Below, piece by piece: positions 1,283-22,316 of a stretch of DNA of 24,000 nucleotides. Within the stretch, counting starts at the first letter, position 1; every line of letters starts with the position of its first letter. The DNA lies in the NCBI GenBank assembly GCA_028710895.1, contig JAQTTH010000002.1, forward strand, positions 299,605-323,604, read 5' to 3'. The notes beneath the pieces were generated by a model. It was not told the DNA's origin, made no database searches, and saw nothing but the letters and a program-made list of their open reading frames with translations. Origin of the DNA: Paludibacter sp. Lineage in GTDB: Bacteria; Bacteroidota; Bacteroidia; Bacteroidales; Paludibacteraceae. The position numbers and the translations under genes were made by a program.

Positions 1283-1286
1283 AAAA

Positions 1287-2604: not shown

Positions 2605-2606
2605 AA

Positions 2607-3488: not shown

Positions 3489-4861
3489 TTTTTATAGCTG
3501 AATGTTTTACCAATTCTTCCTTCCAATTTTCCGTTCTCTAATTTCAATACACCACGTGGACAAACAGCCGAACAAATACCACAACCCACACACGATGCAC
3601 GTACAATGTTTTCACCTTTTTGAGCATACGCACGCACGTCAATACCCATTTCGCAATAAGTGGAGCAGTTACCGCACGAAATGCACTGACCACCATTGGT
3701 GGTAATCCGAAAACGTGATTTGAAGCGTTGAATTATGCCCATATAGGCTGCCATAGGGCAACCAAACCGGCACCATACACGACTACCCAATATAGGATAA
3801 AAACCAACGCCCACAACACCAGAGAAAGCAGCACCAATAAGAAAACCGTAAGGATGCGTGAAATAAGTGTAAATATCCAAGCCCAGGAATGTACTACTTC
3901 CACTGAAATAACCATACAATACAACTAATGTTATCAATGTGATTAATAATAAAATCCCATAAATCAAATACCGTTCAATTTTCCAGGCTCTCACACTTTT
4001 GTCAGACAAATGACGAAAAGGATCTCCGGCAGTTTCTGCCAAACCTCCGCAACCACACACCCAAGAACAATACCATCGTTTACCAAAATAATAGGTCAGG
4101 AAGGGCGTAATCACAAGAAAACCGATAATACCCCAAACGAGATAAACCATACCCAATGAGCCACCGTGCACCATATTATTTAAATGCCAATCGTTGAAAA
4201 AATAGTAGTTCAATGGCCAGAAATATTTAATGTCCATTGCAAAATATGCTTTATCCGAATTTAAACCCTCCATAATGTTGGGAATTAAATACGCCAAAAA
4301 AAGTTGTGCTATTATTACTACAATCGTGCGGATAATCTGGTATCTGTTGTGTCGGTACTTAAGAATAAATTTGATACCCAGTGTTGTAATTATGAGCGTA
4401 TAAAGCGTACCATACACAAACCATTGCGTAGCCGGCTTACCTGTAAAAAGGTCACTCAAGGGGTTAAATAAAGCGATAAGGTTGGTATTGGCTGCACCCT
4501 TTACTCCCTGACCTAAGTATTCGGGAAACCAATAAAGTACCACATAAAAACCGGTGAGAATAACTGCTGTTATCCAACCCAACAATCCTTTAGAAGTAAG
4601 CGAATTGAACCAGATCCCATGATTCTTAATGCCTGCGGGCAAGCTAATATAGGTTTTGATTGCATAAATCGACGTGCCGACAAAGATAGAAAGTAGCGAT
4701 ACGGTTAGCAGCAAACCGTTGTTTTCGAACTCAACACCAAATAATGTCACTGCCAAAATTAAAAGTCCGAGCGCAGAGAGCGACAGACCAAGCTTTTGAA
4801 GAAATCCTGTTTTATAGGGTTGAATATCAACCACTGACAAACTGTTATATATTGGTTTCAT
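3485..4861 (-). CDS. Polytopic membrane 4Fe-4S ferredoxin-type protein (NapH / CcoG(FixG) / RdxA-like)
   Basis: 458 aa with multiple hydrophobic helices. It carries the Cys motifs CSWVCGCGG and WCRFGCPMAA, plus two classical ferredoxin motifs, CISCGNCSTYCEMG and CVGCGICSAVCPRG. Confidence 0.8.
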   Translation of the reverse strand: MKPIYNSLSVVDIQPYKTGFLQKLGLSLSALGLLILAVTLFGVEFENNGLLLTVSLLSIFVGTSIYAIKTYISLPAGIKNHGIWFNSLTSKGLLGWITAVILTGFYVVLYWFPEYLGQGVKGAANTNLIALFNPLSDLFTGKPATQWFVYGTLYTLIITTLGIKFILKYRHNRYQIIRTIVVIIAQLFLAYLIPNIMEGLNSDKAYFAMDIKYFWPLNYYFFNDWHLNNMVHGGSLGMVYLVWGIIGFLVITPFLTYYFGKRWYCSWVCGCGGLAETAGDPFRHLSDKSVRAWKIERYLIYGILLLITLITLVVLYGYFSGSSTFLGLDIYTYFTHPYGFLIGAAFSGVVGVGFYPILGSRVWCRFGCPMAAYMGIIQRFKSRFRITTNGGQCISCGNCSTYCEMGIDVRAYAQKGENIVRASCVGCGICSAVCPRGVLKLENGKLEGRIGKTFSYKK

Positions 4862-4877
4862 ATTATAAATAGATTGA

Positions 4878-4898
4878 CCCCCTAACCCCCAAAGGGGG
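4878..4898 (-). terminator. G/C-only hairpin (C5-TAA-C5-AAA-G5) between the oxidoreductase and polyferredoxin genes; possible attenuator or weak terminator
   Basis: On the plus strand the sequence reads gaCCCCCtaaCCCCCaaaGGGGGaa, inside an otherwise AT-rich 59-nt gap. Either C5 run can pair with the G5 run. No clear U-tract follows on the minus strand. Confidence 0.3.
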
Positions 4899-4920
4899 AA
4901 TAAAGAGGGAGATTAGACTT

Positions 4921-6213
4921 TTAAATCAAATTACACACAGTTGATTTGTCGAATTGATTTTTAATTTCGGCTTCGTGATGTTTGAAAAACTCAGGATCGA
5001 AATTGGCTGTTTTCAAATTGTCAATTACATATTCTATGTTTTTCTTTTCCTGAATCCATTGGTCAAAGACTTCGTGTCGCAAGCGGATTCCAAACACATT
5101 TACACCTAAAATATGATTGCCAATCTTGTCGTAAATCAAACGAAGCGATTTAAATTCATTTTTTGATTTCCAAAAAAATGTAGCTTCGTTTTCTTTGGGT
5201 TTCGCCCATACCCAGCCATAAGTTTGATATTCCACATCGAAAAACTTAGCTGAATTAAACCATATTCCGGGTTGATAATCAGACCGATTACCACAAATGG
5301 AATTAGCAACCGTTTCGCCCATGATACGGCCTGTGTACCAAACCTGTTCAATGGGTTTTCGACCACCGGTGGGTGTACGGTGTTGTGCGCAATCGCCAAT
5401 GGCATACACATTCGCCACATTTGTTTCCAAAAATTCATTTACCAGAACTCCCCTTTCTATCTCAATTCCGGAATCTTTCAGAAAATCGATATTGGGTGTA
5501 ACGCCAACCGTTAAGCCAACAAGCTGACATTCAATTTCTTCGTTTTTGCTTGTTACAATAGATTTCACTTTTCCCGTACCAGAGTCTTTAATTTCTATAA
5601 GTTCTGTATTTAGTTGTAAATCAATATGGTGTAATTTTATCAATTCATTAATCATAGCTGATTCTTCATTAGGTAACACGCCATTCCAGAAACTTTTTTC
5701 GCGCACCAGCATGGTTACTTCAATGTTTTTTGATAATAGCATTTCAGCTAATTCAATGCCTATTAAGCCGCCACCTACAATTACTGCGCGCTTTATGGTT
5801 TTATAACTTTTGGTTAGTTTCTCCAAATCTTGTTTATGATATAAACCCTGTACACCGTCCAAATCCTGACCCGGCCAACCAAATTTGTTTGATTTAGAAC
5901 CAGTGGCAATAATTAAATCGTCGTATTGTAGCGATTTCCCTGTTTTCAACAGAACAGATTTTTGATTTGGATCCACTTTCAAAACTGTATCATGCAGCAA
6001 ATCAATCTTGTTCTTTTCCCAAAAATCATTTTCGTAGGGCTGTGTGTGCTCAAACTTCATGTGACCCATAAACACGTACATTAATGCGGTGCGACTGAAA
6101 AAAAAAGGACTTTCTTCGGAAATGACCGTGATACGGTTGTCGTTTTTTTTTCGGATATTTCGCGCTGCAGTAATTCCCGAAATTCCATTTCCTATAATCA
6201 CAATGTGTTTCAT
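4921..6213 (-). CDS. NAD(P)/FAD-dependent pyridine-nucleotide-disulfide-type oxidoreductase
   Basis: 430 aa. It has an N-terminal FAD Rossmann motif (KHIVIIGNGISGITAA), a second dinucleotide motif (RAVIVGGGLIGIELAE) and the conserved AIGDCA motif near the FAD site. A C-terminal extension of about 100 aa is of unknown function. Confidence 0.85.
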   Translation of the reverse strand: MKHIVIIGNGISGITAARNIRKKNDNRITVISEESPFFFSRTALMYVFMGHMKFEHTQPYENDFWEKNKIDLLHDTVLKVDPNQKSVLLKTGKSLQYDDLIIATGSKSNKFGWPGQDLDGVQGLYHKQDLEKLTKSYKTIKRAVIVGGGLIGIELAEMLLSKNIEVTMLVREKSFWNGVLPNEESAMINELIKLHHIDLQLNTELIEIKDSGTGKVKSIVTSKNEEIECQLVGLTVGVTPNIDFLKDSGIEIERGVLVNEFLETNVANVYAIGDCAQHRTPTGGRKPIEQVWYTGRIMGETVANSICGNRSDYQPGIWFNSAKFFDVEYQTYGWVWAKPKENEATFFWKSKNEFKSLRLIYDKIGNHILGVNVFGIRLRHEVFDQWIQEKKNIEYVIDNLKTANFDPEFFKHHEAEIKNQFDKSTVCNLI

Positions 6214-6301
6214 CTGTATATAATTGTTTTTTAGTTGTCAGATGGAACTCGCACATAAACATTTCCTCGTGAGTGAGTATATATTCGTTGTGCTCGTTTC
6301 A

Positions 6302-7114
6302 TTAGAGTTGCTGTATTAGTTGGGTGTATAATGTAATAAGTTTTGCTTCGGCTTGACCGGCAATGGCAATAATTTCGGGGATATTAACAGGTTTCAGATT
6401 GGCAGGGTCGCATTCGTCGGTCAGTACCGAAATGGCAGCACAAGGCAATCCAATTTGATTGGCTACCAATACTTCAGGCACAGTTGACATACCCACAGCA
6501 TCTGCTCCAATAATTTTCAAATAGCGATATTCCGCACGTGTTTCCAGATTTGGGCCTTTTAAAGCAGCATAAACGCCTTCCCGCAGAATTAGATTTTCTT
6601 TGAGTGCAATTTGTTTGAGTAAGTTGTTTAATTTACTTGAATAGGGTGCCGACATATCGGTAAATCGAGGACCTTGCGAATCATCCTTCAACCCAACAAG
6701 CGGACTATCGGGCAATAAATCAATGTGGTCATCAATAAGCATTAAATCACCTTTTTTGTAATCAAGATTAATAGCTCCTGCTGCATTTGAAAGTAATAAA
6801 TATTTCACGCCCAATGCTTTCATTACACGCACAGGAAAGGTTATTTGCTGCATAGAATAACCTTCGTAAAAATGGAAACGACCTTGCATAGCCAGCACCT
6901 TTTTGCCATTAAGCGTTCCATAAATCAATTTTCCGGAATGAAATTCAACGGTAGATTTTACGAAATTGGGGATATCAACATAATCAATTTGTTGACTAAT
7001 AGCAATTGAATCGACCAACTTGCCTAGCCCTGTTCCCAACACAATTCCTATTTCGGGTTGAAGAATGCCTTTGCTTTCTAAAAAGCTTACTGTTTCATTA
7101 ATTTGATTTTGCAT
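6302..7114 (-). CDS. Purine nucleoside phosphorylase (trimeric PNP/MTAP family)
   Basis: 270 aa. It shows motifs typical of inosine/guanosine-type PNPs: GIVLGTGLG, MQGRFHFYEGY, LLSNAAGAIN, GPNLETRAE and VGMSTVPEV. Confidence 0.85.
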   Translation of the reverse strand: MQNQINETVSFLESKGILQPEIGIVLGTGLGKLVDSIAISQQIDYVDIPNFVKSTVEFHSGKLIYGTLNGKKVLAMQGRFHFYEGYSMQQITFPVRVMKALGVKYLLLSNAAGAINLDYKKGDLMLIDDHIDLLPDSPLVGLKDDSQGPRFTDMSAPYSSKLNNLLKQIALKENLILREGVYAALKGPNLETRAEYRYLKIIGADAVGMSTVPEVLVANQIGLPCAAISVLTDECDPANLKPVNIPEIIAIAGQAEAKLITLYTQLIQQL

Positions 7115-7125
7115 AGAAATATTTT

Positions 7126-7956
7126 TTATGATTTACAATTGTCATTATTACAGCATCCGCCATCGGTTGTACTTTTTTTCATTGCCGGTTCCAGTATTTT
7201 AGTAAAGAACAATGCAGCGAATATTCCACCTACAATTGGAGCAAGCATATAAACGAGAAAAAATCCACCTTGTTGGTCGGGAAAAGCAGCATTACCCCAA
7301 CCAAACATCCAAGCTATCATTCGCGGTCCAAAATCTCTAGCCGGGTTCAAGCCTGCTTGTGTAAGTGGTGCTATCAGGCAAATTATTGAACTAACGGTTA
7401 ATCCTATAAACACAGGCGCAATAGCATTACTTGGCTTACCCACATTGCAGCCTTCGGTAAGTGCAAAAATCATGAGTAATAATATAAAAGTGCCAAAAGC
7501 TTCAGCTGCCATCGCCAATAGCATACCGATACCATGACCACCAATATTATAATACTCCCCAAACATCTTGGCTATTTTTGCTGATTCTTCGGAACCACGG
7601 ATTATATTTTGTGTTTGCTCAAACGAACTAATTGAAGACGAGAATAATATATATACCGTAAGACCTGCAACAAACGCGCCCAGTATTTGAGCGATAATGT
7701 ATGCCGGCAATCTGTCGGCTGACATTCGTTTGCTTATTACCATAGCAATACTAACAGCGGGGTTGAGATGTGCACAGCACAAATGTCGGGTGAGGTAAAT
7801 GGCAAGTGTGACACCAATTCCCCATACCAATGCTATCTGTAAAATGCCCTGATATCCGTTAAACAACACTGATACTGCTACCGAACCGCATCCAAAAAGA
7901 ACAAGTATAAATGTTCCCAAAAACTCACCTAAAAATTCGTTTTTATATTTTAGCAT
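7126..7956 (-). CDS. MIP-family channel (aquaglyceroporin-like) with a Cys-rich C-terminal tail
   Basis: 276 aa. Two NPA boxes are present (HLNPAVS and GLNPARD) with six hydrophobic helices. An unusual tail reads ...TTDGGCCNNDNCKS. Confidence 0.9.
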   Translation of the reverse strand: MLKYKNEFLGEFLGTFILVLFGCGSVAVSVLFNGYQGILQIALVWGIGVTLAIYLTRHLCCAHLNPAVSIAMVISKRMSADRLPAYIIAQILGAFVAGLTVYILFSSSISSFEQTQNIIRGSEESAKIAKMFGEYYNIGGHGIGMLLAMAAEAFGTFILLLMIFALTEGCNVGKPSNAIAPVFIGLTVSSIICLIAPLTQAGLNPARDFGPRMIAWMFGWGNAAFPDQQGGFFLVYMLAPIVGGIFAALFFTKILEPAMKKSTTDGGCCNNDNCKS

Positions 7957-7963
7957 ACATTTC

Positions 7964-8596
7964 TTACTTATATTCCTGAATTAATTTCACTAACTGCGTG
8001 TACTTCATTACATCTTCAACTTTATCCACATCATTCAGCGGAATTAAAGTGTTGTAGGTTAGTTTTTCATTTTCCAACACTGCTATCGTCTGTTTTAGTG
8101 TTTTGTCGGTACTCCATTCAATGTCTTCAAAAAGTGCCGAATGATTTCTCGTCATTCCCAATAAATAGTATCCTCCATCGTTAGCAGGACCAATCACACA
8201 ATCGGTTGATTTTAATTTTTCAAAAGCATCGGCAATTATTTCTGACGTTATTTCATAATTATCGCTGCCAATAATCACTACTCTCGAAAATCCAGCATCA
8301 AAAGCTGCATCAAACGCTCCTTTCATCCGAGTGCCTAAATCAGCTCCATGTTGCTCATGAACCTGAATATTACCCTTTATTTCTAATGAAAACTCTGAAG
8401 CTTCAGCCACAAAAACCAACTTTTCGACATCCAATTGCTCAACTACCTGAATGGTATAATTAAGCAATTCGGTATAAATCAAAAGTGCTTTCAGATTGCC
8501 AATCTCATTTCCAATTCGGGTCTTAACCTTACCTAATTCCGGGTTTCGGACAAACACGATTAAAGCATCGGTTTTATTCATACACTTTATCGCCAT
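7964..8596 (-). CDS. DUF2064 / CofC-like nucleotidyltransferase-fold protein (TIGR04282-type 'arsenosugar biosynthesis glycosyltransferase' family)
   Basis: 210 aa. The N-terminus ALIVFVRNPELGKVKTRIG and the later VIIGSDNYE and GPANDGGYYLLG motifs match my recollection of DUF2064. An alternative ATG at 8581 would shorten the overlap with the rhodanese gene from 23 nt to 8 nt. Confidence 0.65.
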   Translation of the reverse strand: MAIKCMNKTDALIVFVRNPELGKVKTRIGNEIGNLKALLIYTELLNYTIQVVEQLDVEKLVFVAEASEFSLEIKGNIQVHEQHGADLGTRMKGAFDAAFDAGFSRVVIIGSDNYEITSEIIADAFEKLKSTDCVIGPANDGGYYLLGMTRNHSALFEDIEWSTDKTLKQTIAVLENEKLTYNTLIPLNDVDKVEDVMKYTQLVKLIQEYK

Positions 8597-9083
8597 TAGT
8601 CAGCCACTTGCCCCAATCCTTATTATAGGCATGTATTTTATCTGTTTTTTGTTCGGTATTATCAACTACATCAAAGCCCAGGTTTACCCACTCAAAAAGT
8701 CCACCATAAAGATTAAAGACATTTTTATAACCCGCTTTTCGAAGTTTTTCACCTACTCGCTCGCTGCGGTATCCTACTGAGCAATAGACTACTATAGTAT
8801 CCGATTTGGCAATGTCTTTTACTTTTTCGAGTGTAAACGTGTCATAATCAACGAATTTTGCTCCATCAATATGGCTGGCATCGTATTCACTTTGTTTGCG
8901 TGTATCGAGTATTACGATAGCGTTTGGCTCTGATAGCTTTAGTTTTAATTCGGCTGCATTTATAAACGCAACGGTGTTTTTATACATTCCTTTTAGCATG
9001 GCATGATATTGAGTTGTTGATTGAGAAAATGTGCTACCAACAATTGTAAATAATGCGATAAATAATATTACATTTTTTTTCAT
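8574..9083 (-). CDS. Secreted single-domain rhodanese-like sulfurtransferase
   Basis: 169 aa with signal peptide MKKNVILFIALFTIVGSTFSQ. The rhodanese active-site loop is VVYCSVGYRSE, followed by the GGLFEW motif. Its ATG overlaps the arsS TGA (ATGA at 9080-9083). Confidence 0.8.
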   Translation of the reverse strand: MKKNVILFIALFTIVGSTFSQSTTQYHAMLKGMYKNTVAFINAAELKLKLSEPNAIVILDTRKQSEYDASHIDGAKFVDYDTFTLEKVKDIAKSDTIVVYCSVGYRSERVGEKLRKAGYKNVFNLYGGLFEWVNLGFDVVDNTEQKTDKIHAYNKDWGKWLTNGDKVYE

Positions 9084-10132
9084 AACAAAACTATTTCACC
9101 GCCACAACTTGACCCCGCACCAGCAGTGCAGCCATAGCAGTGTTGCGATACTTTTACTTCGCGTTTCAATAAATAATCCAAATCGAAATTCGCCACGTGA
9201 TTTCGTTCATCAGCAGCCACTTTCATGTTCAGCATCTGATTAAAATCACAATCGAATAAATAACCATCCCAACTTACCGAAATCATATTCCGACACATCA
9301 CATTTTCGGCAGCCAATGGATTAAAAGCATTAACAAGCTCTTCCATGTACGAAACGTAATTATCTGTATTTACCAAGTAGTTAAGAAAACGGCTAACAGG
9401 CAAGTTTGTAAGCGCAAATAGTTTATTGAAAACAATGCCGTGTTCGCTCCACAAATGCTCTTTAAACTCGGTTTCGAGCATTGTTTGCGAAGCTGGCAAA
9501 AATGCTCCGGCCGGATTGTAAACCAAATCCAGCAACAAACCACTATCAGGTTTGCCGTAACCTCTGGCATTCAACATCTTCAATGCTTTTATTGAGGTTT
9601 CAAAAACACCTTTTCCACGTACTTTATCGGTGCGGGTGGCATCATAAAACGGCAAAGAACTCACTACTTCCACGCCGTTTTCGGCAAAGAAATCAGGTAA
9701 GTCATTGTGCTCATCAGCTTCCAAAAGTATAGTCAGATTGCAGCGTACAATAATCCGTTTGCCCAAAGCGTGGCAAGCCTTTACAAACCAACGGAAATGT
9801 GGGTTCAATTCCGGTGCTCCACCTGTGAGATCAACAATTGGTATATTAAATTTCTGAATGGCATTTAAGCATAACTGCATGGTTTCTTTGGTCATAATTT
9901 CCTGGCGGTCAGGACCAGCATTTACATGGCAGTGACGGCAAGTCTGGTTACACATTTTACCTACATTTACCTGAAATACATCCAAACCAACAGGTTTTAA
10001 TGAGCTGATATTGTGTTCTTTCAACTTGTCTTTGAAATATGGAACATTAGTCGACTTTGTGGTTACAAGTTCCAATACCTGAAGTTGCCGTAAGGCTTCC
10101 GCTTCTTCTTTCGCTTTATTATATGCTATCAT
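9080..10132 (-). CDS. arsS: ArsS-type radical SAM / Cys-rich domain protein (arsenosugar biosynthesis radical SAM enzyme)
   Basis: 350 aa. The CX3CX2C radical-SAM motif is CNQTCRHCHVNAGPDR. The characteristic C-terminal Cys-rich end is HCYGCTAGAGSSCGGEIVLL. The ORF is uninterrupted, so this is the Cys form rather than the selenocysteine form. Confidence 0.85.
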   Translation of the reverse strand: MIAYNKAKEEAEALRQLQVLELVTTKSTNVPYFKDKLKEHNISSLKPVGLDVFQVNVGKMCNQTCRHCHVNAGPDRQEIMTKETMQLCLNAIQKFNIPIVDLTGGAPELNPHFRWFVKACHALGKRIIVRCNLTILLEADEHNDLPDFFAENGVEVVSSLPFYDATRTDKVRGKGVFETSIKALKMLNARGYGKPDSGLLLDLVYNPAGAFLPASQTMLETEFKEHLWSEHGIVFNKLFALTNLPVSRFLNYLVNTDNYVSYMEELVNAFNPLAAENVMCRNMISVSWDGYLFDCDFNQMLNMKVAADERNHVANFDLDYLLKREVKVSQHCYGCTAGAGSSCGGEIVLL

Positions 10133-10143
10133 TACATTTGTAT

Positions 10144-10479
10144 TTAGAAACTTATTTCTTCGTTTTTATTCATCATTTGCACACTATGAGCCAATACAGC
10201 TCCACCTTTTATGGCAGCTCCCACATGAACTGCTTCCATCATTTGAGCTTCCGAATATCCATTTTTCACACAATTCGTAGTATATGCATCAATGCAATAA
10301 GGACATTGAACTACATGCGCAACCGCTAATGCAATTAAATCTTTTTCTTTTTCCGTTAATGCTCCCTCTTTGAATACTTCGCCATACCAGGCGAAAAACT
10401 TGTCGGCTAAGGGTTTCTGATAATTTCCAATGGTACCAAACTTTTTTAAGTCTTCCGGTTTATAATAATCTTTTGCCAT
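10144..10479 (-). CDS. AhpD-like / carboxymuconolactone-decarboxylase-fold CxxC protein ('arsenosugar biosynthesis-associated peroxidase-like protein' family)
   Basis: 111 aa with a CPYCIDAYT redox motif. Its size and its position 11 nt upstream of arsS match that family's known context. Confidence 0.75.
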   Translation of the reverse strand: MAKDYYKPEDLKKFGTIGNYQKPLADKFFAWYGEVFKEGALTEKEKDLIALAVAHVVQCPYCIDAYTTNCVKNGYSEAQMMEAVHVGAAIKGGAVLAHSVQMMNKNEEISF

Positions 10480-10484
10480 ACTGT

Positions 10485-11195
10485 TTATTCGTTTAAATTC
10501 CAGTTATATGTTAAGTAACTAATTTTTGCGTTTTTGTCAATTTTTACTTTTGAGTATTGATTCAAAAAATCAATCAGTTTTGATTTTTGTGTAAAATCGG
10601 CTGTAAACCAACTGAATATTTCTGAAATTTCAATGTTTTGATTGGTAATTTTATTTCTTCCAGTATCATTCAGAAAACGTTTCGCACTTTCATCAAGCTG
10701 AACATCCAACGTTTCCGGCAAATAAGCTTTGTTGCTCAATATCGGACATGATTTAGCTGCACAAACAATGGCAAAATGTATGCGTGCGTCTTTATAAGTA
10801 GGACGTAAAATCTTGTTCTCTATGTCGTTGAGCGTATAGGTCTTATTCTCTATTGTTATGAATTTTTTATCCCAAGGTGCACCAATATCCTTAATGCTTT
10901 TGAGTGGATAATTATCCACTATCAATTTTACTGTAAAAGCATTGTAGGCATTTATCCAATATGCTTTCGCTTCGTTGACAGTCCATTTTGCTTTGGGACT
11001 CGTGGTTTTGAGTAGTTGCAAATAGTTATCCAATTCCGCTGCATTGCTTTTAATAGCTTTGTAGTTTACATTGCCCGTAGCCGATACGTATTTATTTAAA
11101 AATCCGTTCCATTTTTCGTGAGAAAAATTACTAATTTGCGCTGAAATTAAGTGAGAACTAATGACTAAACTTAGTGTCAATATTATTGTTTTCAT
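10485..11195 (-). CDS. Secreted DUF547 domain protein
   Basis: 236 aa with signal peptide MKTIILTLSLVISSHLISAQ. The motifs WINAYNAFTV and HFAIVCAAKSCPIL match the DUF547 core. Confidence 0.65.
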   Translation of the reverse strand: MKTIILTLSLVISSHLISAQISNFSHEKWNGFLNKYVSATGNVNYKAIKSNAAELDNYLQLLKTTSPKAKWTVNEAKAYWINAYNAFTVKLIVDNYPLKSIKDIGAPWDKKFITIENKTYTLNDIENKILRPTYKDARIHFAIVCAAKSCPILSNKAYLPETLDVQLDESAKRFLNDTGRNKITNQNIEISEIFSWFTADFTQKSKLIDFLNQYSKVKIDKNAKISYLTYNWNLNE

Positions 11196-11216
11196 ATTTA
11201 TATTTTTAATTGTAGT

Positions 11217-12248
11217 TTAGCAACCGCAGTTTGCTGGCGAGGAAACGTTTGAGCTTGAGGGCGAACAATCAAAAGCCCCAAAATGGGTTGACTTATCGCC
11301 AGTAATACGGAAATGCTCCGAGAAACGGGTTTCCTGCACCATGGCTGTCGTGTTACCACAAACCAACATGGGTTTACCTGTAATAAACTTGTGATGATCG
11401 TCTAATTCAAAAAAGTGAGAGTGATTCGGAATTGTCCCCAAATAAATGGCTACCTGACCGTAATCTTCGCAAATATCTTCTAACTCCAACTTAAATGCTC
11501 TAATGGTCAACGAAGTAAATTCAATCAATCCAACTTTCTCTTCAATTTCGGTATTGTTAACCGTAATGGGCGAAGAATTAGTAACACGAAAGTCATTACA
11601 TCCAATCTTTAACATCAATCGTCTAAAATCTTCAACGTACATAGCTCCACCCAAACATTCACCATGCAATACTTTGTCATTTGCCAAATGCGTTGGAATT
11701 CGTTGGTTAGCAAAAACATCCGAAAAATAAAGTTCCCCGCCCGGTTTCAACACCCTGAAAATTTCTTTGAAAACTGACTCCTTATCGGGCGATAAATTGA
11801 TAACGCAATTAGAAATAACCACATCTATAGAATTATCTTCTATGCCAATTTCTTTCAGATCCTCAATATAGCCTTGTTTGAAAACCACATTGGGTTTTTC
11901 AAAACCAAACTTGCTCGTTTGCGTATCAACATGTCTCTCGGCCACTGCCAGTTGCTCTGCTGTCATATCAACTCCAATGGACAATCCATTGCTGCCAACT
12001 AATTTAGATACAATATACACATCGCGACCTGAACCACAGCCTAAATCAAGTACGGTTTTTCCTTCGAGCAAAGCCGGAATTGGCGAACCGCAACCATAAA
12101 AGCGGTCTTTTATTTCGTTGTCAATCTGGCTTAAAGCCAACTTTACATCCGGCGAAAGTTTTTCGGTGCTGCAACAACAAGCATTGGTTTGTAAATCGCT
12201 GCTGCTTTGAAGTATTTCGCCATAATATTTTTTTACATCTTCTTTCAT
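11217..12248 (-). CDS. arsM: Arsenite S-adenosylmethionine methyltransferase (ArsM / AS3MT family)
   Basis: The SAM motif is VLDLGCGSGRD. All four As(III)-binding Cys positions of ArsM are present: NACCCS, FYGCGSP, SNCVINLSPDK and HGECLGGA. An extra C-terminal NCGC is present. The track start at 12311 is a TTG; I prefer the ATG at 12248-12246 (MKEDVKKYYGEIL...), which matches the usual ArsM N-terminus. Confidence 0.9.
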   Translation of the reverse strand: MKEDVKKYYGEILQSSSDLQTNACCCSTEKLSPDVKLALSQIDNEIKDRFYGCGSPIPALLEGKTVLDLGCGSGRDVYIVSKLVGSNGLSIGVDMTAEQLAVAERHVDTQTSKFGFEKPNVVFKQGYIEDLKEIGIEDNSIDVVISNCVINLSPDKESVFKEIFRVLKPGGELYFSDVFANQRIPTHLANDKVLHGECLGGAMYVEDFRRLMLKIGCNDFRVTNSSPITVNNTEIEEKVGLIEFTSLTIRAFKLELEDICEDYGQVAIYLGTIPNHSHFFELDDHHKFITGKPMLVCGNTTAMVQETRFSEHFRITGDKSTHFGAFDCSPSSSNVSSPANCGC

Positions 12249-12291
12249 AGATTTATATTTTGATTCTTGTATATAGCTATTTTTATCATTA

Positions 12292-13338
12292 TCATTTGGT
12301 TTTAAATGCAATCTTTATAATTTCTTGTGCCGACTTATTCTGAGGGGTGTAATCAGTATTGTTTATACCACCTGCATTAGTATGTTGCGGATACCATTTC
12401 CACAAAAAAGCACCTTTGAACCATGGTTTATCAGCAAAAGTTTGAAAAAATGCCTGCAATGCATTGCTTTGCGATTGCTGGTTTACGATTGTCGAAATAG
12501 GATTCCAGGGTTCTTTAGCACATTGGTCAACACTTTTGTAACCAATCTCCGTAAAAATGACCGATTTGTTTTTTGATAATCGGTATTGATCAATTTCATT
12601 CATTTCCTTTTGCCAACTGCTTACAAGACTTGCCACAGTTGGCGTGTTTTCATTCGACAAGGGAAAATAGGCATCAATCCCTATATAATCCAACTTATTC
12701 CAAAAAGGCACTTGTTGGTAATCATCCCAATTGGCGGCATAAATCAATTTACCACCGTAAAAAGTTCGGATTGTATCTATTAAATTTGACCAATACTGTG
12801 GACGCTTTTCCACCACCATTTTCAATTCAGTGCCAATGCAAAACATTTCAATATCGAGTGAATCGGCTAAATGAGCAAAATGCAAAATATAAGTTGAATA
12901 ATTTTTCTCCCATGCAGTCCATTCAACTTCAGTAGTAAGATTGAATGCAGCTGGATAAGAATTTCTAACCCAAATTTGGGGTTTCAACATCGTTTTAATT
13001 TCTTTTTCTCTTGCTAATTTTGTGGTTACAATCACTCCCAAATCCGTTTCGCCCCACCATTGATGATTTGGATCGAAAGTAACTTGGGTAGAATTCAATT
13101 GACCAAAAGCAAATGGCATTTGAGTAATATAATTGCAATTTACATCAACTATCGGTGTTATGGCTGTACTATCAAGTGTTTTTCCTCCTGCCACAAAACT
13201 CAAACCATTGAATTCGAAGTGGGCTGAAGCAATGGGCTTTTCATTTACTATTGGTTCTTTTTGACAAGCAAAAAAAGTAATTATTGCGCACATTATCAAC
13301 ACGAGCAATTGATGTTTTTTTAATTTCCTGAATACCAT
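12292..13338 (-). CDS. Clan GH-A-like (beta/alpha)8 glycoside hydrolase, lipoprotein (GH113/GH5-like; family unverified)
   Basis: 348 aa with a lipoprotein signal ITFFAC|QKE. Candidate catalytic glutamates sit in CIGTELK and VIFTEIGYKS, spaced as in 4/7-superfamily hydrolases. It is a paralog of the next ORF and shares the block FWNKLDYIGIDAYFPLS. Confidence 0.55.
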   Translation of the reverse strand: MVFRKLKKHQLLVLIMCAIITFFACQKEPIVNEKPIASAHFEFNGLSFVAGGKTLDSTAITPIVDVNCNYITQMPFAFGQLNSTQVTFDPNHQWWGETDLGVIVTTKLAREKEIKTMLKPQIWVRNSYPAAFNLTTEVEWTAWEKNYSTYILHFAHLADSLDIEMFCIGTELKMVVEKRPQYWSNLIDTIRTFYGGKLIYAANWDDYQQVPFWNKLDYIGIDAYFPLSNENTPTVASLVSSWQKEMNEIDQYRLSKNKSVIFTEIGYKSVDQCAKEPWNPISTIVNQQSQSNALQAFFQTFADKPWFKGAFLWKWYPQHTNAGGINNTDYTPQNKSAQEIIKIAFKTK

Positions 13339-14324
13339 CTCTTAATAATTTTCTCAACTGGTTTATGCTGCGGTGTATAATCCGAATTTGGTTTGTCTAT
13401 GTAAGTGGCATCGTTATTGTACCATTTCCAAACAAAACCTCCAGCTACAAAATCTGTATTCCATACCGCATCATAAAATGCAGTGTAGGCATTTATTTGT
13501 GCAGCCATATTTATTTTCTCGGTTTTGGGCGTTTGTTCAAACTCCCATTGTTTGAATGCTGCATAATCTATGCTTCTGTATCCATATTCGGTAAACAAAA
13601 TCTTTCTACCGTACTTTAAACTCAATTGCTTCATTTTCAATAAAGGTAATTTCCATGCTTTTTGTAACTCTTCCACCGAAGGTGTTTTCTTAGCCGAAAG
13701 TGGGAAATAAGCATCTATCCCGATATAATCTAATTTGTTCCAAAAACTAATGTGATTAAATTCTTCAAAATTAGCCGAATAGGTTAATTTTCCTTTATAC
13801 ACATTTCTGATTTTTGAAATAAGCTCTTCAAAAAAACGACCGTGCAATTGTGTATACACTTGTAATTCAGTGCCTATTCCAAGTAGCTCCACATGCTCCG
13901 ATTGAGCAATTTGTGCTAAAAAAAGCAGATAATTACAATAATTTTGTTCCCATTCAATTCTTGTATTACCCGATAAATTAAAACTTCCAGCCCAAACATC
14001 ATTCATCAACCAACAATGTGGTTTTAAGAACACATGTAAACCTTGCTTTTTGCTACGATTAATTAGCATTCTTAATCCAATTTCGGTATCCCCCCACCAA
14101 TTTTTTGAGCTGTTATACTCCACAATACTACTATTTTTATAAATGAATGCAAAAGGACATATTGCCACCCAATTAGCATTTACTCTGTAAATTGAATCAA
14201 TACCAGTAATTTCAGTTTTATATTTTGGCGAAACAAAAGATACACCATTTATTTTTCTAAAACTCTCACCATGAATCAACTGTGCATACCCTATAATACA
14301 AAAAACAAATACAAGAATTCTCAT
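13320..14324 (-). CDS. Clan GH-A-like (beta/alpha)8 glycoside hydrolase, secreted; tandem paralog
   Basis: 334 aa with signal peptide MRILVFVFCIIGYAQLIHG. It has GIGTELQ and ILFTEYGYRS motifs. It overlaps the downstream paralog by 19 nt. It is the first gene of the 16-gene array. Confidence 0.55.
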   Translation of the reverse strand: MRILVFVFCIIGYAQLIHGESFRKINGVSFVSPKYKTEITGIDSIYRVNANWVAICPFAFIYKNSSIVEYNSSKNWWGDTEIGLRMLINRSKKQGLHVFLKPHCWLMNDVWAGSFNLSGNTRIEWEQNYCNYLLFLAQIAQSEHVELLGIGTELQVYTQLHGRFFEELISKIRNVYKGKLTYSANFEEFNHISFWNKLDYIGIDAYFPLSAKKTPSVEELQKAWKLPLLKMKQLSLKYGRKILFTEYGYRSIDYAAFKQWEFEQTPKTEKINMAAQINAYTAFYDAVWNTDFVAGGFVWKWYNNDATYIDKPNSDYTPQHKPVEKIIKRWYSGN

Positions 14325-14344
14325 AAACGACTTATTTGAATATA

Positions 14345-14375
14345 TAGTCGAGAAGATCTACTATTCCTGACAAAT
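14345..14375 (-). promoter_or_regulatory. Copy A of the ATTTGTCAGGAAT-N12-CGACTA motif; putative ECF-type promoter of the 16-gene array
   Basis: The plus strand reads TAGTCG-agaagatctact-ATTCCTGACAAAT. It ends 21 nt upstream of the ATG at 14324. It is identical at 19 fixed positions to the copies at 16087-16117 and 16994-17024. Confidence 0.6.
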
Positions 14376-14381
14376 AAATAA

Positions 14382-15212
14382 TTATTTTATTTGAAGTGGA
14401 TAAATAAACTGTCCCCAAAACATCTTGGGAAAAATCTTTTCATCGCCAAAACCTAATTCAATATCTCTCCCTGAGCCCGGTATGTAGTTGGTTTTAAACA
14501 AATAATCCCAAACGCTCAACGACAATCCAAAATTTACACCGTAACGCCGGCTTTCAGGAAGTTTCTTGGCATGATGCCAAATATGCATTTGTGGATTATT
14601 TACGATATATTTAAACCATCCCAACTGAATAGAAAAATTAGAATGATTGAAATGCCCGATGGCAATAGTAATGATATACATGATGGTAAAATCCTGTGCA
14701 CTCATACCAAGCAATGCCAACGGAACATATTGCAAAACGCTATAAACCAGTCCTTCCACCCAATGGTAGCGTAGATGTGCGGCAAATCCCATTTCTTTGA
14801 CAGAATGATGCACTTTGTGGAATTGCCACAACCAATCGACCCGATGCAGCAAGCGGTGAATATTAAATTGTACAAAATCGCGCAACAGAAAAAATACAAG
14901 TATTTGAACCCACGAAGGCAATGAACTGATATTTAATAGATTCAATTGTTGTATACCCATCGTATTTAACCCGACCCAAAGATATTGATGTGTCAGGCTT
15001 GCTAAAAAATTAAGCAATAACACCGGGAAAATGAACAGGTTAAAAAACATATAAAAGCCATCGAGCCAAAAATCTTTCCGAAATATAGATTGATTTTTCC
15101 GCCACGGAAAGAATATTTCTAATCCCCAAAAGAAAATGGAAAGCCCTACAAACCAATGGAAAAATGGATTTAAAACTGTTTCCGTTATATTATTTTCCAA
15201 TGTTTCTAACAT
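14382..15212 (-). CDS. Fatty acid hydroxylase / sterol desaturase superfamily membrane protein
   Basis: 276 aa with several TM helices. The di-iron histidine boxes are HRLLHR, HKVHH and HIWHH. Confidence 0.8.
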   Translation of the reverse strand: MLETLENNITETVLNPFFHWFVGLSIFFWGLEIFFPWRKNQSIFRKDFWLDGFYMFFNLFIFPVLLLNFLASLTHQYLWVGLNTMGIQQLNLLNISSLPSWVQILVFFLLRDFVQFNIHRLLHRVDWLWQFHKVHHSVKEMGFAAHLRYHWVEGLVYSVLQYVPLALLGMSAQDFTIMYIITIAIGHFNHSNFSIQLGWFKYIVNNPQMHIWHHAKKLPESRRYGVNFGLSLSVWDYLFKTNYIPGSGRDIELGFGDEKIFPKMFWGQFIYPLQIK

Positions 15213-15234
15213 ATAAGTTTTCTATTGATAATTT

Positions 15235-15795
15235 TCAATAATTATATCCAATACCCTTGTCGTCTTCTAATTGCACACCCAACGACAAAACAATGCGATT
15301 GACAAAATTGAAATACGCAACAACCAAAACTGCATCCAATACTCCCTCATCTGAAATTCCTACAGTTTTAAGTTCTTTTGTATAATCCGCTTTTTCGTGC
15401 AAATGCGGAAACAATGTTAGTTCCTTAGCAAATTTACATAAGGCATTTTCTTTGACAGAAAGCTCTTTTACTTCCATATTTGAAAATAACAATTGTATCT
15501 TCGATTCATTTTTCCAATATTTATTCAACGCTTCCGAATGATGTGTTTTGCAATAATTACAACCATTATTTACTGATACAACCACGGCCATCATTTCGCG
15601 TTCGGCTCGTGATAAAGCCGAATGGTTAAACATAATTTCCATGTACAAATTCATGTGAGCCACTATACTTTCGGGATGTAAACTCTGAATTGTGTGCACT
15701 GCGGCAAGTTTAGCACGACTTTTTACAAGGTCATCGTAAATCTCTTTCAATCTGCCGGTTGATTCTTCGTGTTGTATTACTTTTATTCGGGACAT
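15235..15795 (-). CDS. Carboxymuconolactone decarboxylase / AhpD-fold 'peroxidase-related enzyme'
   Basis: About 186 aa with a CNYCKTHH CxxC motif in an all-helical context. The track start is a TTG at 15798; an ATG lies at 15795. Confidence 0.7.
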   Translation of the reverse strand: MSRIKVIQHEESTGRLKEIYDDLVKSRAKLAAVHTIQSLHPESIVAHMNLYMEIMFNHSALSRAEREMMAVVVSVNNGCNYCKTHHSEALNKYWKNESKIQLLFSNMEVKELSVKENALCKFAKELTLFPHLHEKADYTKELKTVGISDEGVLDAVLVVAYFNFVNRIVLSLGVQLEDDKGIGYNY

Positions 15796-15840
15796 CAATT
15801 AATATTATTGTTAATTTTATCATATGCTTATTTATTGCTA

Positions 15841-16050
15841 CTACATTGCTTTTACAGCAGAATAAGTTGACACTAAATAGGGCACACAATACGTTAGAAG
15901 CATTTTAAATATAGAAATTCGTTCAAAATCCAACCCAATTATGGAATTCCACTGATTGATGAGATTCAGAATTGTACCTACCACAATGGCTACTTTTAAA
16001 GCTGTAAGTACTATTTGCTTTTCAAAAGCTTGTTGGGAAAAGATATTCAT
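15841..16050 (-). CDS. Small two-TM membrane protein resembling NrtS-type nitrate/nitrite transporter family
   Basis: The segments ALKVAIVVGTILNLINQ and LLTYCVPYLVSTYSAVKA match my recollection of the NrtS family. The track start at 16086 is a TTG that abuts the promoter-like motif, so I prefer the ATG at 16050. Confidence 0.5.
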   Translation of the reverse strand: MNIFSQQAFEKQIVLTALKVAIVVGTILNLINQWNSIIGLDFERISIFKMLLTYCVPYLVSTYSAVKAM

Positions 16051-16086
16051 AGAGTTAATTTGTTGAGTTACATTGCTACACACCAA

Positions 16087-16117
16087 TAGTCGGCAAGAGC
16101 TAATATTCCTGACAAAT
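16087..16117 (-). promoter_or_regulatory. Copy B of the ATTTGTCAGGAAT-N12-CGACTA motif; putative ECF-type promoter of the NrtS-like/AhpD-like/hydroxylase operon
   Basis: The plus strand reads TAGTCG-gcaagagctaat-ATTCCTGACAAAT, 37 nt upstream of the ATG at 16050. Its spacer also matches copy A at 8 of 12 positions. Confidence 0.6.
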
Positions 16118-16150
16118 CAATCAAAAATAATTTTCAGAACACAAAGATAT

Positions 16151-16176
16151 ATATTAGTTTCAAATGAAACTAATAT
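16151..16176. promoter_or_regulatory. Perfect 26-bp palindrome (12-bp arms, 2-bp spacer); probable MarR operator in the divergent intergenic region
   Basis: The sequence is ATATTAGTTTCA-aa-TGAAACTAATAT. It lies 41 nt upstream of the marR ATG and 34 nt beyond motif copy B. A TAnnTTTG-type box (TACTTTTG, 16197-16204) sits between it and marR. Confidence 0.6.
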
Positions 16177-16216
16177 TGCGGTTTGATATTTTTCGTTACT
16201 TTTGCAGAAAAAAAGT

Positions 16217-16648
16217 ATGGAGTATTCCTTTTCCGGTTCATTTGGAAATCTATCGAGTAGAATTTCGCTGCAACTTAGAAAAGTTCTTATAAACAATTTG
16301 AAGAAGGCCGAAATTGAGATAACGCCTGATGAATGGTTTGTTATCTCAAAATTATATCATTCAGTATCGAGCACACAAAATGATATTGCAGAACATTTGG
16401 GATTAAGTAAAGTGAAAGTTACCCGTTTAATAGAGCAGCTCGAAAGGAATAAATTAATTCAGCGGGAATCTGAAGATGGTGACAGAAGGTTTAAAAATGT
16501 AAGTCTTACTAAAGTTGGAAAATCATTGTATTTGAAAGTTGAACCCATTGCAAAAAAGACATTAACGCAAACATTCTCAGGTTTCAGCGAAGATGAACAG
16601 AAAATATTTTTAGACTTTTATGTTCGGATATTACGTAATTTAGATTAG
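16217..16648 (+). CDS. MarR-family transcriptional regulator
   Basis: The winged-HTH region reads QNDIAEHLGLSKVKVTRLIEQLERNKLIQRESEDGDRRFKNVSLTKVG. It is the only plus-strand gene in the window. The track start at 16202 is a TTG; an ATG lies at 16217. Confidence 0.8.
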   Translation: MEYSFSGSFGNLSSRISLQLRKVLINNLKKAEIEITPDEWFVISKLYHSVSSTQNDIAEHLGLSKVKVTRLIEQLERNKLIQRESEDGDRRFKNVSLTKVGKSLYLKVEPIAKKTLTQTFSGFSEDEQKIFLDFYVRILRNLD

Positions 16649-16651
16649 AAC

Positions 16652-16912
16652 TTAGTGTTTGTCTTTGGTTAGTTCTTCCTTAATCTTACTTTTCAATTCA
16701 TCTGTATTGTGATGAGATTCTTGGTGTGAACGAAAAATAGCATCGTCGAGGAACTTGCTTTGTTTTTCGTAATTAGTGCAAGCATCGCACATGGATTTAT
16801 GCATTGTCAACCGAATTTTCTCAGAAAGAGACAGTTTAAACCTCAGTTTTTTTTCTATTAATTCTGTAGCTTTCAAACAGGAAAGAAACAGCAGTTGCAT
16901 AAGTTTTTTCAT
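16652..16912 (-). CDS. Small zinc-binding anti-sigma factor (ZAS HxxxCxxC type), no TM segment
   Basis: The MHKSMCDAC motif matches H-x3-C-x2-C. The ATG at 16912 lies 7 nt after the sigma gene stop. The track's TTG start at 16930 would overlap the sigma gene. Confidence 0.55.
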   Translation of the reverse strand: MKKLMQLLFLSCLKATELIEKKLRFKLSLSEKIRLTMHKSMCDACTNYEKQSKFLDDAIFRSHQESHHNTDELKSKIKEELTKDKH

Positions 16913-16919
16913 AAGTACT

Positions 16920-17471
16920 TTAATTTTCAAACCAATTTTTTTGAATACAATTTCTTAGTTGCAGTTTAGCCCGGTGAACTATCTGCCAAAAGTTAGTCGT
17001 AGCAATGCCCAATTCCTGACAAATTTCGTCACTGCTTTTTTCGCTCAGGTATTTAAGCTTTACACTCATACTCCATTTTTCGGGCAATGCATCTAAACAC
17101 ATTTTCAATACACCTTGAAAATCAATATCGTCGAGTAAATGCCCATCTTCCGTCAACCAATTAGTTGGCTTTTTGTTTTCGTGCCAATCACCACCTTCAT
17201 CAAAATAATTTTCTAGTGAATTGTCTTCAAACTTTAGCGGCTGGTTTATTTTCACCCTGTAGTAATCGATAATTTTGAAATTCAAAATGGAGAACAGCCA
17301 AGTTTTTGGCGAACTATCTCCCCTAAAGCTTCCAATCTTTTCGGCAGCCGCCAAAAAAGTATCCTGAACCAAATCCTCAGCCATTTCGGTTGATGACGTT
17401 TTGTGATATGCCCAACGGTAAAGCTCATCGGTGTATTCAGAAACCCAGTTTTCCAAGAGTGCGTTTGTCAT
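16920..17471 (-). CDS. ECF-type sigma-70 family RNA polymerase sigma factor
   Basis: 183 aa. Region 2 reads AEDLVQDTFLAAAEKIGSF...PKTWLFSILNFKIIDYYR. The region 4.2 HTH reads SDEICQELGIATTNFWQIVHRAKLQLR. Confidence 0.9.
   Translation of the reverse strand: MTNALLENWVSEYTDELYRWAYHKTSSTEMAEDLVQDTFLAAAEKIGSFRGDSSPKTWLFSILNFKIIDYYRVKINQPLKFEDNSLENYFDEGGDWHENKKPTNWLTEDGHLLDDIDFQGVLKMCLDALPEKWSMSVKLKYLSEKSSDEICQELGIATTNFWQIVHRAKLQLRNCIQKNWFEN
16994..17024 (-). promoter_or_regulatory. Copy C of the ATTTGTCAGGAAT-N12-CGACTA motif, inside the sigma factor coding sequence; putative internal promoter for the anti-sigma gene
   Basis: The plus strand reads TAGTCG-tagcaatgccca-ATTCCTGACAAAT. It encodes ICQELGIATTN of sigma region 4.2. 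It lies 82 nt upstream of the anti-sigma ATG. Confidence 0.45.
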
Positions 17472-17565
17472 ATATTAATTTATTTTCAGTTCAACAATTT
17501 CAAGTAACATAAGTTTATTGCAATGATATAAACAAGTTCGATTAATTTGAATTAATACCTTTGCT

Positions 17566-18468: not shown

Positions 18469-18481
18469 AGATTTAAAGTAT

Positions 18482-18530
18482 AAAAAAACCTCTGCAAATT
18501 GCGTTGAAAACAGGCAACTTAAAGAGGTGA
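18482..18530 (-). terminator. Stem-loop followed by a T-run on the minus strand, immediately upstream of the Abi gene
   Basis: In minus sense it reads cACCTCT-ttaaGTTGcctgttttCAACgcaatttgc-AGAGGT-TTTTTTTA. A 6-bp outer stem and a 4-bp inner stem are followed by 7 T. It could end a transcript coming from the primase side, or be a leader structure for abi. Confidence 0.3.
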
Positions 18531-19907: not shown

Positions 19908-19964
19908 TTCGCTTAGTTGATAATTAACAGTTAATAGTTGAGAATGTAGGATAGATTTATAATG

Positions 19965-20136: not shown

Positions 20137-20149
20137 CAAGGTGTTTTTT

Positions 20150-22285: not shown

Positions 22286-22316
22286 TAAGCAGATACTATA
22301 AAATCATTGAAATTAT

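Follow-up and report, generated by a model that had tools for sequence, protein, structure and literature searches.

The 24-kb stretch of Paludibacter sp. DNA analyzed here (contig JAQTTH010000002.1, positions 299,605 to 323,604; hereafter the window) encodes a sigma factor of the extracytoplasmic function (ECF) type, a small zinc-associated anti-sigma (ZAS) factor and a long array of arsenic genes. Three copies of a bipartite motif in the window, designated A, B and C, are very probably cognate promoters of the adjacent sigma factor, judging from their behavior across orthologous loci. The best explanation of the locus as a whole, which we hold with high confidence, is that these promoters obey a thiol switch held by the ZAS factor and that the arsenic array is part of its regulon. 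The mechanism is a standard ECF sigma/anti-sigma circuit, and its promoter class has already been described in Neisseria. What appears to be new, as far as sequence comparison can tell, is the regulon in Bacteroidota, the inclusion of arsenosugar biosynthesis in it in several lineages and a constrained internal promoter in the region 4 codons of the sigma gene. Full-text literature searches for TGTCAGG with ECF, and for arsenosugar or ArsS with sigma factor, returned nothing relevant, and no paper on the bacterial regulation of arsenosugar (ArsS/ArsM-type) clusters was found.

RESULTS

Motif copies in the window

The pattern ATTTGTCAGGAAT-N12-CGACTA has exactly three matches in the window, all on the minus strand and with no mismatches (Table 1), as the initial annotation had reported; no fourth match appears there even when up to three mismatches are allowed, and all three copies read GTCAGGAAT-N12-CGACTA. 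A further copy by chance had been considered very unlikely, and 100 dinucleotide-preserving shuffles of the window indeed gave no match. A position weight matrix (PWM) built from sites in orthologous sigma loci, with a threshold of at least 12 bits for counts, scores the three copies at 28.5 to 31.6 bits and the rest of the 24 kb, on both strands, at less than 9 bits. Copy A begins 6 nucleotides (nt) past the fatty-acid hydroxylase stop codon that precedes it and ends 20 nt short of the first array gene (ATG at 14324). For copy B, which lies in an intergenic region common to a divergent MarR gene, the distance to the start codon of an NrtS-like gene (ATG at 16049) is 36 nt; the corresponding distance from copy C to the anti-sigma gene (ATG at 16912) is 81 nt. 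The distances of 21, 37 and 82 nt given initially thus hold to within 1 nt. Copy C was also correctly placed upstream of the anti-sigma gene, but its location inside the sigma coding sequence had gone unstated: it occupies codons E149-I-C-Q-E-L ... T158-T-N160 of the region 4.2 helix-turn-helix.

For this class of promoter in Neisseria, a conserved A located 6 nt downstream of the -10 element is the mapped gonococcal msrAB transcription start (PMC2893595). Applied to the window, the same rule would place starts near 14337 for copy A, about 16079 for copy B and about 16985 for copy C, with a predicted leader of ~13 nt from copy A. Copies A and B have 8 of their 12 spacer bases in common and are identical to the in-gene copy C at all 19 fixed positions. 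The identity between A and B exceeds the family consensus, and the fourth copy and the sites of locus L038 (both described below) match the core alone. This pattern, read from the sequences, suggests a recent duplication or homogenization of promoters A and B.

Two other readings of the motif were discarded. The promoter of SigR from Streptomyces coelicolor is GGAAT-N18-GTT, and no GTT lies at the required distance in copies A to C. GGAAT was also rejected as a -35 element because its AAT is not conserved in the family (w-w-t only) and the gap to CGAC is just 12 nt. A scan of positions 1 to 17700 with sigma-70 promoter and terminator consensus sequences gave counts at or below shuffle expectation; the consensus is unsuited to Bacteroidota and uninformative on operon ends.

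Motif behavior across orthologous sigma loci

The family sample comprised 83 loci with sigma orthologs of 60-87% identity (1.24 Mb in total), all turned so that sigma reads on the plus strand. The sigma strand carries 134 occurrences of GTCAGG-N14/15-CGAC and the opposite strand 2, and the same boxes at a spacing of N13 or N16 are never found on the sigma strand. Sites outside the sigma open reading frame (ORF) lie downstream of the sigma gene in 116 cases and upstream in 3, with ~0.6 Mb of sequence available on each side. A T precedes GTCAGG in 98-100% of the sites, though it was absent from the search pattern, and T-(A/G)-T-T is favored after CGAC. When TGTCAGG is held fixed, the sole -10 tetramers enriched at the right spacing are CGAC (118 sites) and CGTC (16 sites); other variants (CTAC, CAAC, CGCC and similar) were tried and showed no enrichment on the sigma strand. 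These comparisons indicate a functional core of TGTCAGG-N14/15-CG(A/T)C.

Outside the sigma gene, TGTCAGG-N14/15-CG[AT]C is present at 134 positions on the sigma strand and at 1 on the other. An ATG-started ORF begins within 260 nt of 132 of these 134 sites, at a median distance of 38 nt (10th to 90th percentile, 22-74 nt), so that they do not behave as a dispersed repeat found away from gene starts, the outcome that the initial annotation had named as contrary to its proposal. Only 9 of the 134 fall inside ORFs of at least 100 amino acids (aa), though such ORFs make up 77% of the bases. With the PWM (at least 12 bits), the sigma strands of the family loci yield 247 sites and the opposite strands 6. 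Family sites follow the consensus tTGTCAGGwtt-N11/12-CG[AT]CTa, in which the bases beyond TGTCAGG and CG[AT]C are not conserved. The layout proposed earlier, TGTCAG-N16-CGAC, is ECF-like as claimed, but its -35 element is better given as TGTCAGG, and the extra bases shared by the window copies (ATT..., ...AAT, ...TA) are not a family trait.

The sites are co-oriented and intergenic, with a fixed -35/-10 spacing and enrichment beside the cognate sigma gene, which are the sequence features of functional promoters. Their strand, spacing and position statistics are those of a promoter read by the co-encoded sigma factor and not those of a repeat or a palindromic operator. Together with the match to the Neisseria consensus, this bears out the cognate ECF promoter reading of the initial annotation. 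A cognate site within 400 nt upstream of the sigma gene itself (PWM of at least 12 bits) was found in just 3 of 82 loci, and none was found in the window.

The genes that follow the sites belong to recurrent classes. The first gene encodes a rhodanese-thioredoxin fusion at 32 sites, a tRNA_anti-like OB-fold protein at 20, a DsrE-like protein at 10, a CxxC protein of 135 aa at 9, a ~727-aa protein with a type IX secretion (T9SS) sorting tail at 8, a DinB-like protein at 5 and an AhpC/TSA peroxiredoxin at 4. Further recurrent first genes encode DUF4395, a cytochrome P460-like protein and DoxX, and the YceI and cysteine dioxygenase genes come later in the same operons. Judged by these annotations, the family regulon would be a thiol, sulfur and oxidative stress set, which fits the conserved ZAS motif of the anti-sigma factor.

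Sigma and anti-sigma factors

The sigma protein consists of sigma2 and sigma4 domains only, as do ECF (group IV) sigma factors, and it passes the TIGR02937 profile (81.4 bits; cut-off, 42.9). An identical protein is encoded by a Paludibacter sp. metagenome-assembled genome (MAG), relatives in Bacteroidia number thousands, and several of those at 66-68% identity are labeled as TIGR02943 family in JGI naming. Labilibaculum antarcticum, Ancylomarina longa and Saccharicrinis aurantiacus are among the cultivable carriers of the family. The closest solved structure by sequence is Mycobacterium tuberculosis SigH (E = 2.4e-10). The anti-sigma spacing C-x25-H-x3-C-x2-C is kept in 78 of 79 orthologs (~88 aa long) and agrees with the ZAS class I pattern, namely H-x3-C-x2-C plus a Cys or His 23-26 residues upstream in a protein whose gene comes after that of sigma. 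The anti-sigma protein scores 45.8 bits against NF052368 (cut-off, 50), and a sequence search of the PDB with it returned no solved homolog.

Copy C as a probable internal promoter

In copy C, TGTCAGG is made up of the codons for Cys151 (TGT) and Gln152 (CAG) plus the leading base of Glu153. Among 59 conserved degenerate columns in 84 sigma genes, codon variation is zero in just 2, and these are TGT (84/84) and CAG (81/81). Other Cys columns of the same genes are divided between TGT and TGC (48/33 and 69/14), other Gln columns between CAG and CAA (43/41 and 61/19), and background codon usage in the loci is ~52% TGT and ~49% CAG. Codon 158 contributes the G of CGAC through its third base, which is G in 42 orthologs, T in 40, C in a single one and A in none; Pro codons elsewhere in the loci are used at ~25% each. 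The full CG[AT]C is present within the sigma gene in 39 of 83 orthologs. A T at the third base of codon 158 gives CT[AT]C, a form that intergenic sites do not use.

In L099 and L107, which are more distant loci, the full motif stands just after the sigma stop codon and ahead of the anti-sigma gene. Their codons equivalent to Cys151-Gln152 are TGT-CAA and TGC-AAT, and the constraint is relaxed. Taken together, the codon constraint on copy C and the spacer motif of these two loci indicate a conserved design in which the coding sequences of sigma and anti-sigma have a sigma-dependent promoter between them. In the subfamily of the window, the codons suggest that the sigma coding sequence itself contains this promoter, which is best read as an internal one serving the anti-sigma gene. 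Its consequence would be negative feedback without positive autoregulation of sigma. A precedent exists in Escherichia coli, where rseA P3, a sigma-E-dependent promoter within rpoE, transcribes only rseABC (PMC8595263).

Link to the arsenic genes

Locus L038, from Porphyromonadaceae bacterium CG2_30_38_12, is syntenic with the window from sigma through ArsS. The shared order is sigma, anti-sigma, MarR, NrtS-like, CMD, fatty-acid hydroxylase, two GH113-like genes, ArsM-like, DUF547, CMD and ArsS. The products matched by tblastn are 60-90% identical (80-81% for the AhpD/CMD protein and the fatty-acid hydroxylase, which keep the same order), and an NrtS-like ORF was read at the same position in the L038 sequence. 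Both intergenic promoters have positional counterparts there: that of copy A, TGTCAGG-N15-CGTCTA, starts 8 nt past the hydroxylase stop, and that of copy B (L038:2844) precedes the NrtS-like gene. L038 differs in having a GNAT acetyltransferase gene (L038:4599-5099) between the copy-A-equivalent promoter and the GH113 genes, which the window lacks.

The association recurs in a distant set of 80 metagenomic ArsS loci (ArsS identity of 53-63%), which contain the motif 10 times, in every case on the ArsS strand. The order in L099 and L107 is sigma (45-46% identity), motif, anti-sigma, motif, one small gene, CMD and ArsS. The motif of L116, L103 and L111 is found just upstream of the CMD/ArsS genes, and L112 and L113 present a third arrangement. 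The initial annotation had placed the arsenic array in the sigma regulon and had pointed to motif conservation upstream of orthologous clusters as a check. The copy-A site kept in L038 and the independent ArsS loci with sigma, anti-sigma and a motif before CMD-ArsS favor that placement, the motif before CMD-ArsS being found in L099, L107, L116, L103 and L111.

The surroundings of the array are informative as well. A contig identical to positions 1-6248 of the window, L165, reaches 4.6 kb further and carries a fourth copy on the minus strand (L165:7802; gatTGTCAGGatttccacttttctcCGACtgtat, 30.1 bits), ~1.55 kb beyond window position 1 and after two more glycosyltransferase genes. This copy lies 52 nt before an operon that constitutes the family core regulon (tRNA_anti-like, YceI, thioredoxin, AhpC/TSA and cysteine dioxygenase). 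Consequently, the arsenic array is sandwiched between the sigma/anti-sigma pair and the core thiol operon. The locus with the closest sigma factor (L002, 87% identity) has no arsenic genes and reads sigma, anti-sigma, MarR, motif (3055-3085) and tRNA_anti-like, its promoter being orthologous to the fourth copy. Comparison of this order with the window and L165 points to a ~17.5-kb insertion in the window between MarR and the core operon, which takes in copies B and A together with what follows each of them, an operon and the arsenic array respectively. An arsenic module thus appears to have been inserted into an older sigma-controlled thiol-stress island, bringing cognate promoters with it. 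The L038 synteny, the distant ArsS loci, the fourth copy and the comparison with L002, all at the level of sequence, support the membership of the arsenic array in the sigma regulon.

Genomic context

The features of the window are collected in Table 1. By its profile matches, the array is an arsenosugar-type (ArsS-type) cluster, with ArsS and the associated marker proteins above curated cut-offs. Profile searches of the window ORFs scanned found no ArsR-family gene. Homologs of the GH113-like proteins at the head of the array were observed near ArsS in 9 of the 80 metagenomic ArsS loci (among them L132, L159, L160 and L162), and the GH113-like genes may represent an unrecognized recurrent component of arsenosugar clusters.

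The MarR gene is found at the same place in L002 (72% identity) and L038 (60%), and just 4 of the 83 family loci have one. Its product may act as a second, ligand-dependent control layer on the NrtS-like operon or on read-through into the array. Directly upstream of the sigma gene, the minus-strand region 17566-23923 looks like the backbone of an integrative mobile element.

Table 1. Features of the 24-kb window. Paired values are profile scores in bits/curated cut-off; array genes are listed in their order.
Feature	Position	Strand	Description
Copy A	14345..14375	(-)	Predicted ECF promoter of the arsenosugar array; -35 TGTCAGG, N15, -10 CGACTA; 28.5 bits
Copy B	16087..16117	(-)	Predicted ECF promoter of the NrtS-like + AhpD/CMD-like + fatty-acid hydroxylase operon; 31.6 bits
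Copy C	16994..17024	(-)	Predicted internal ECF promoter in region 4.2 codons of the sigma ORF
ECF sigma gene	16920..17471	(-)	183 aa; Pfam Sigma70_r2 (59 bits) and Sigma70_r4_2 (33 bits)
ZAS-type anti-sigma gene	16652..16912	(-)	Small, cytoplasmic, ~86 aa; C12, H38, C42, C45; directly downstream of sigma
MarR-family regulator gene	16202..16648	(+)	Pfam MarR; convergent with the anti-sigma gene, divergent from copy B
Operon after copy B	14382..16049	(-)	NrtS-like (15841-16049), peroxidase-related AhpD/CMD (15235-15798), fatty-acid hydroxylase (14382-15212)
Arsenosugar array after copy A	1..14324	(-)	Tightly packed
Array: two tandem GH113-like genes	12292-14324	(-)	TIM-barrel glycosidase-like; Pfam GH113; head of array
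Array: ArsM-like methyltransferase	11217-12311	(-)	PRK11873, 199/263; arsenosugar ArsM NF038099, 122/400; below every curated cut-off
Array: DUF547 protein		(-)	Pfam
Array: arsenosugar-associated peroxidase-like protein		(-)	TIGR04169, 172/120
Array: ArsS radical SAM enzyme		(-)	TIGR04167, 438/300
Array: rhodanese		(-)	NF045521, 195/145
Array: arsenosugar glycosyltransferase		(-)	TIGR04282, 199/134
Array: MIP channel		(-)	TIGR00861, 179/171
Array: purine nucleoside phosphorylase		(-)	PRK08202, 342/218
Array: flavin disulfide reductase		(-)	Pfam Pyr_redox_2
Array: Fe-S protein		(-)	Pfam Fer4 families, under gathering cut-offs
Array: two unknown proteins		(-)	One with a weak MORN_2 match, the other with no match
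Array: GT2 glycosyltransferase		(-)	Pfam Glycos_transf_2
Array: glycosyltransferase gene		(-)	490 aa; crosses the window start, continuation seen in L165
Abi_2	17566-18468	(-)	
Zn-ribbon + DUF6371	18849-20027	(-)	
DUF3987	20150-21496	(-)	
Two HTH_17 genes	21493-22235	(-)	
364-aa ORF	22419-23513	(-)	No assignment
Short ORF	23630-23923	(-)	Phage-integrase domain match

DISCUSSION

Several observations weigh against the reading of this locus as a sigma-controlled thiol switch that extends to the arsenic array. The transcription starts, the sigma dependence and the inducers are all deduced from sequence comparison. The best subfamily match of the sigma protein, TIGR02943, reaches 141 bits and falls short of its cut-off (162.2), which leaves the protein outside that subfamily. 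The motif is missing from most of the 80 more distant ArsS loci, and the arsenic link would therefore be limited to certain lineages. Furthermore, the divergent MarR beside copy B may gate or override sigma-dependent expression, and some MAGs carry two members of the sigma family, so that a paralog could read the same sites. As for copy C, roughly half of the sites within sigma genes read CT[AT]C at the -10 position, a variant with no enrichment between genes; the internal promoter may thus be weak or inactive in many species. Since Cys151 and Gln152 are invariant as amino acids, part of their conservation would also come from the protein.

It could be that A and B are real ECF promoters and that copy C is a mere by-product of the helix-turn-helix codons (EICQEL...TTN), with no initiation from it. 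I150, C151 and Q152 are all invariant amino acids, the full -10 element is restricted to less than half of the orthologs (39 of 83), and the CT[AT]C of the others lacks intergenic enrichment. However, TGT and CAG are universal while the other Cys and Gln columns vary. Additionally, codon 158 ends in G or T in 82 of 83 orthologs and never in A, against a background of ~25% per base, and the constraint on the two codons is relaxed in L099 and L107, where the full motif follows the sigma stop. With the precedent of E. coli rseA P3, these features make the by-product explanation unlikely, and copy C is more readily seen as an internal promoter.

The paralogs raise a different question, namely whether the sites are read mainly by a sigma factor encoded elsewhere, the adjacent pair not being the main controller of the array. 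Two family members are located on different contigs in several MAGs (L029/L035, L017/L072, L005/L073 and L010/L078), and the sites from all 83 loci, these MAG pairs included, share one consensus, which raises the question of cross-talk between paralogs. Against this, the sites cluster right after each sigma gene (116 downstream versus 3 upstream), and the arsenic genes adjoin their own sigma/anti-sigma pair in the window, L038, L099 and L107. We consequently regard control of the array by the adjacent pair as the preferred interpretation and main control by a paralog as decidedly improbable.

It is very improbable that the motif, instead of being a promoter, serves as the operator of the divergent MarR or another conventional regulator or acts as a leader element at the RNA level. 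The MarR gene beside copy B is kept in L002 and L038, and the 13 + 6 fixed bases exceed the minimal needs of a promoter. Nevertheless, MarR is present in just 4 of 83 motif-bearing loci, and the bases outside TGTCAGG and CG[AT]C are not conserved in the family. The motif itself is no palindrome; its two parts keep a strict 14/15-nt gap and strictly face the same way as the gene that follows, 22-74 nt before start codons, and it equals a published ECF consensus with a mapped start site. Finally, an origin of the copies as remnants of a dispersed repeat or mobile element, or as chance matches, is effectively refuted in spite of the mobile-element backbone immediately upstream (17566-23923), as zero copies are expected by chance, the flanks have no homology beyond the motif, the spacer sequences differ between copies, and the family sites are intergenic and precede genes of recurrent functional classes.

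Under the promoter reading, the ZAS anti-sigma factor, a small cytoplasmic protein predicted to bind zinc and encoded just downstream, would keep the sigma factor inactive, and a thiol-reactive signal (oxidants, electrophiles, reactive sulfur species and possibly arsenite) would free it. The released sigma factor would then direct transcription of the NrtS-like, AhpD-like and fatty-acid hydroxylase genes from copy B, of the ~17-gene arsenosugar array from copy A and by read-through from B, and of the core thiol operon (tRNA_anti-like, YceI, thioredoxin, AhpC/TSA and cysteine dioxygenase) from the fourth copy. Copy C would serve the anti-sigma gene alone, so that the anti-sigma factor is replenished. 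The nature of the signal, whether thiol, zinc or arsenite, is itself an inference. A more specific idea, that the ZAS factor itself senses arsenite or a trivalent methylated arsenical through binding of the metalloid by the thiols of Cys12, Cys42 and Cys45 and displacement of zinc, is speculative and doubtful. If it were true, the pair would be an arsenic sensor of a new class, working as a sigma/anti-sigma switch and not as a repressor of the ArsR type, by which arsenosugar biosynthesis is switched on together with thiol repair in anaerobic Bacteroidota.

If the regulon proposed here is correct, organoarsenical synthesis in several Bacteroidota lineages would be part of a thiol/sulfur stress response governed by a cytoplasmic zinc-thiol sensor. 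This would offer a testable answer to when and why these bacteria produce arsenosugars, as well as defined parts for reporter assays (the sigma factor, the anti-sigma factor and a 30-bp promoter). Moreover, the more than 130 sites in 83 genomes represent a well-populated regulon for an uncharacterized Bacteroidota ECF family.

Comparison with known systems

The closest known counterpart is sigma-E of Neisseria, whose consensus comprises the -35 element GTMAGBWTT, a spacer of 12-13 and the -10 element CGTCTAAH (Hopman et al., PMC2893595). The promoter described here, GTCAGGwTT-N11/12-CG(A/T)CTA, is nearly identical. Neisseria sigma-E (Ecf, NMB2144) is controlled by MseR (NMB2145), a small cytoplasmic ZAS protein with C4, H30, C34 and C37 (PMC2893595); RpoE2/HrsE of Haemophilus influenzae has been described as a relative in "ECF group 13" (PMC7907618), which was merged into ECF293 on reclassification (PMC7826278). 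As in Neisseria, the anti-sigma factor here is small and soluble, its gene lies directly downstream of sigma, and the C...H-x3-C-x2-C spacing is the same. The regulons are likewise concerned with oxidative and thiol repair, through MsrAB in Neisseria and through thioredoxin and peroxiredoxin here. The systems differ in phylum, this one belonging to Bacteroidota and not to Proteobacteria, and in their feedback: the Neisseria operon is positively autoregulated from an upstream promoter, an element nearly absent from the present family, in which the anti-sigma gene is preceded by a promoter located within the sigma gene or immediately behind it. The present regulon is also far larger than that of Neisseria and includes organoarsenical biosynthesis.

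The ZAS ligand spacing is identical to that of RsrA, the partner of SigR in S. coelicolor (C11/H37/C41/C44 in RsrA, PMC2893595, versus C12/H38/C42/C45 here). SigR-RsrA and SigH-RshA of M. tuberculosis, both in the thiol-oxidative group ECF12, resemble the present system in their thioredoxin-centered regulons and cytoplasmic ZAS anti-sigma factors. Unlike the SigR promoter, however, the promoter here is TGTCAGG-N15-CGAC; sequence similarity to SigR and SigH is weak, and both of those sigma factors autoregulate from upstream promoters, which is not the arrangement found here.

The internal promoter has its parallel in E. coli rseA P3, as P3 is, and copy C would be, a sigma-dependent promoter within the sigma coding region that serves anti-sigma genes only and provides extra negative feedback. 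P3 lies ~230 nt upstream of rseA, compared with ~80 nt here, and E. coli, unlike the present family, has an additional sigma-E-dependent promoter upstream of rpoE. The two systems also differ in ECF group and in anti-sigma type, RseA being membrane-bound.

Lastly, the ArsR/SmtB-controlled ars operons share with this locus the handling of arsenic genes, and both systems could sense a thiophilic metalloid via cysteines. Control by ArsR/SmtB is by derepression, whereas here it would be by promoter selection through a sigma/anti-sigma pair, and the output of the ars operons is efflux or reduction, whereas the output here would be arsenosugar-type biosynthesis.

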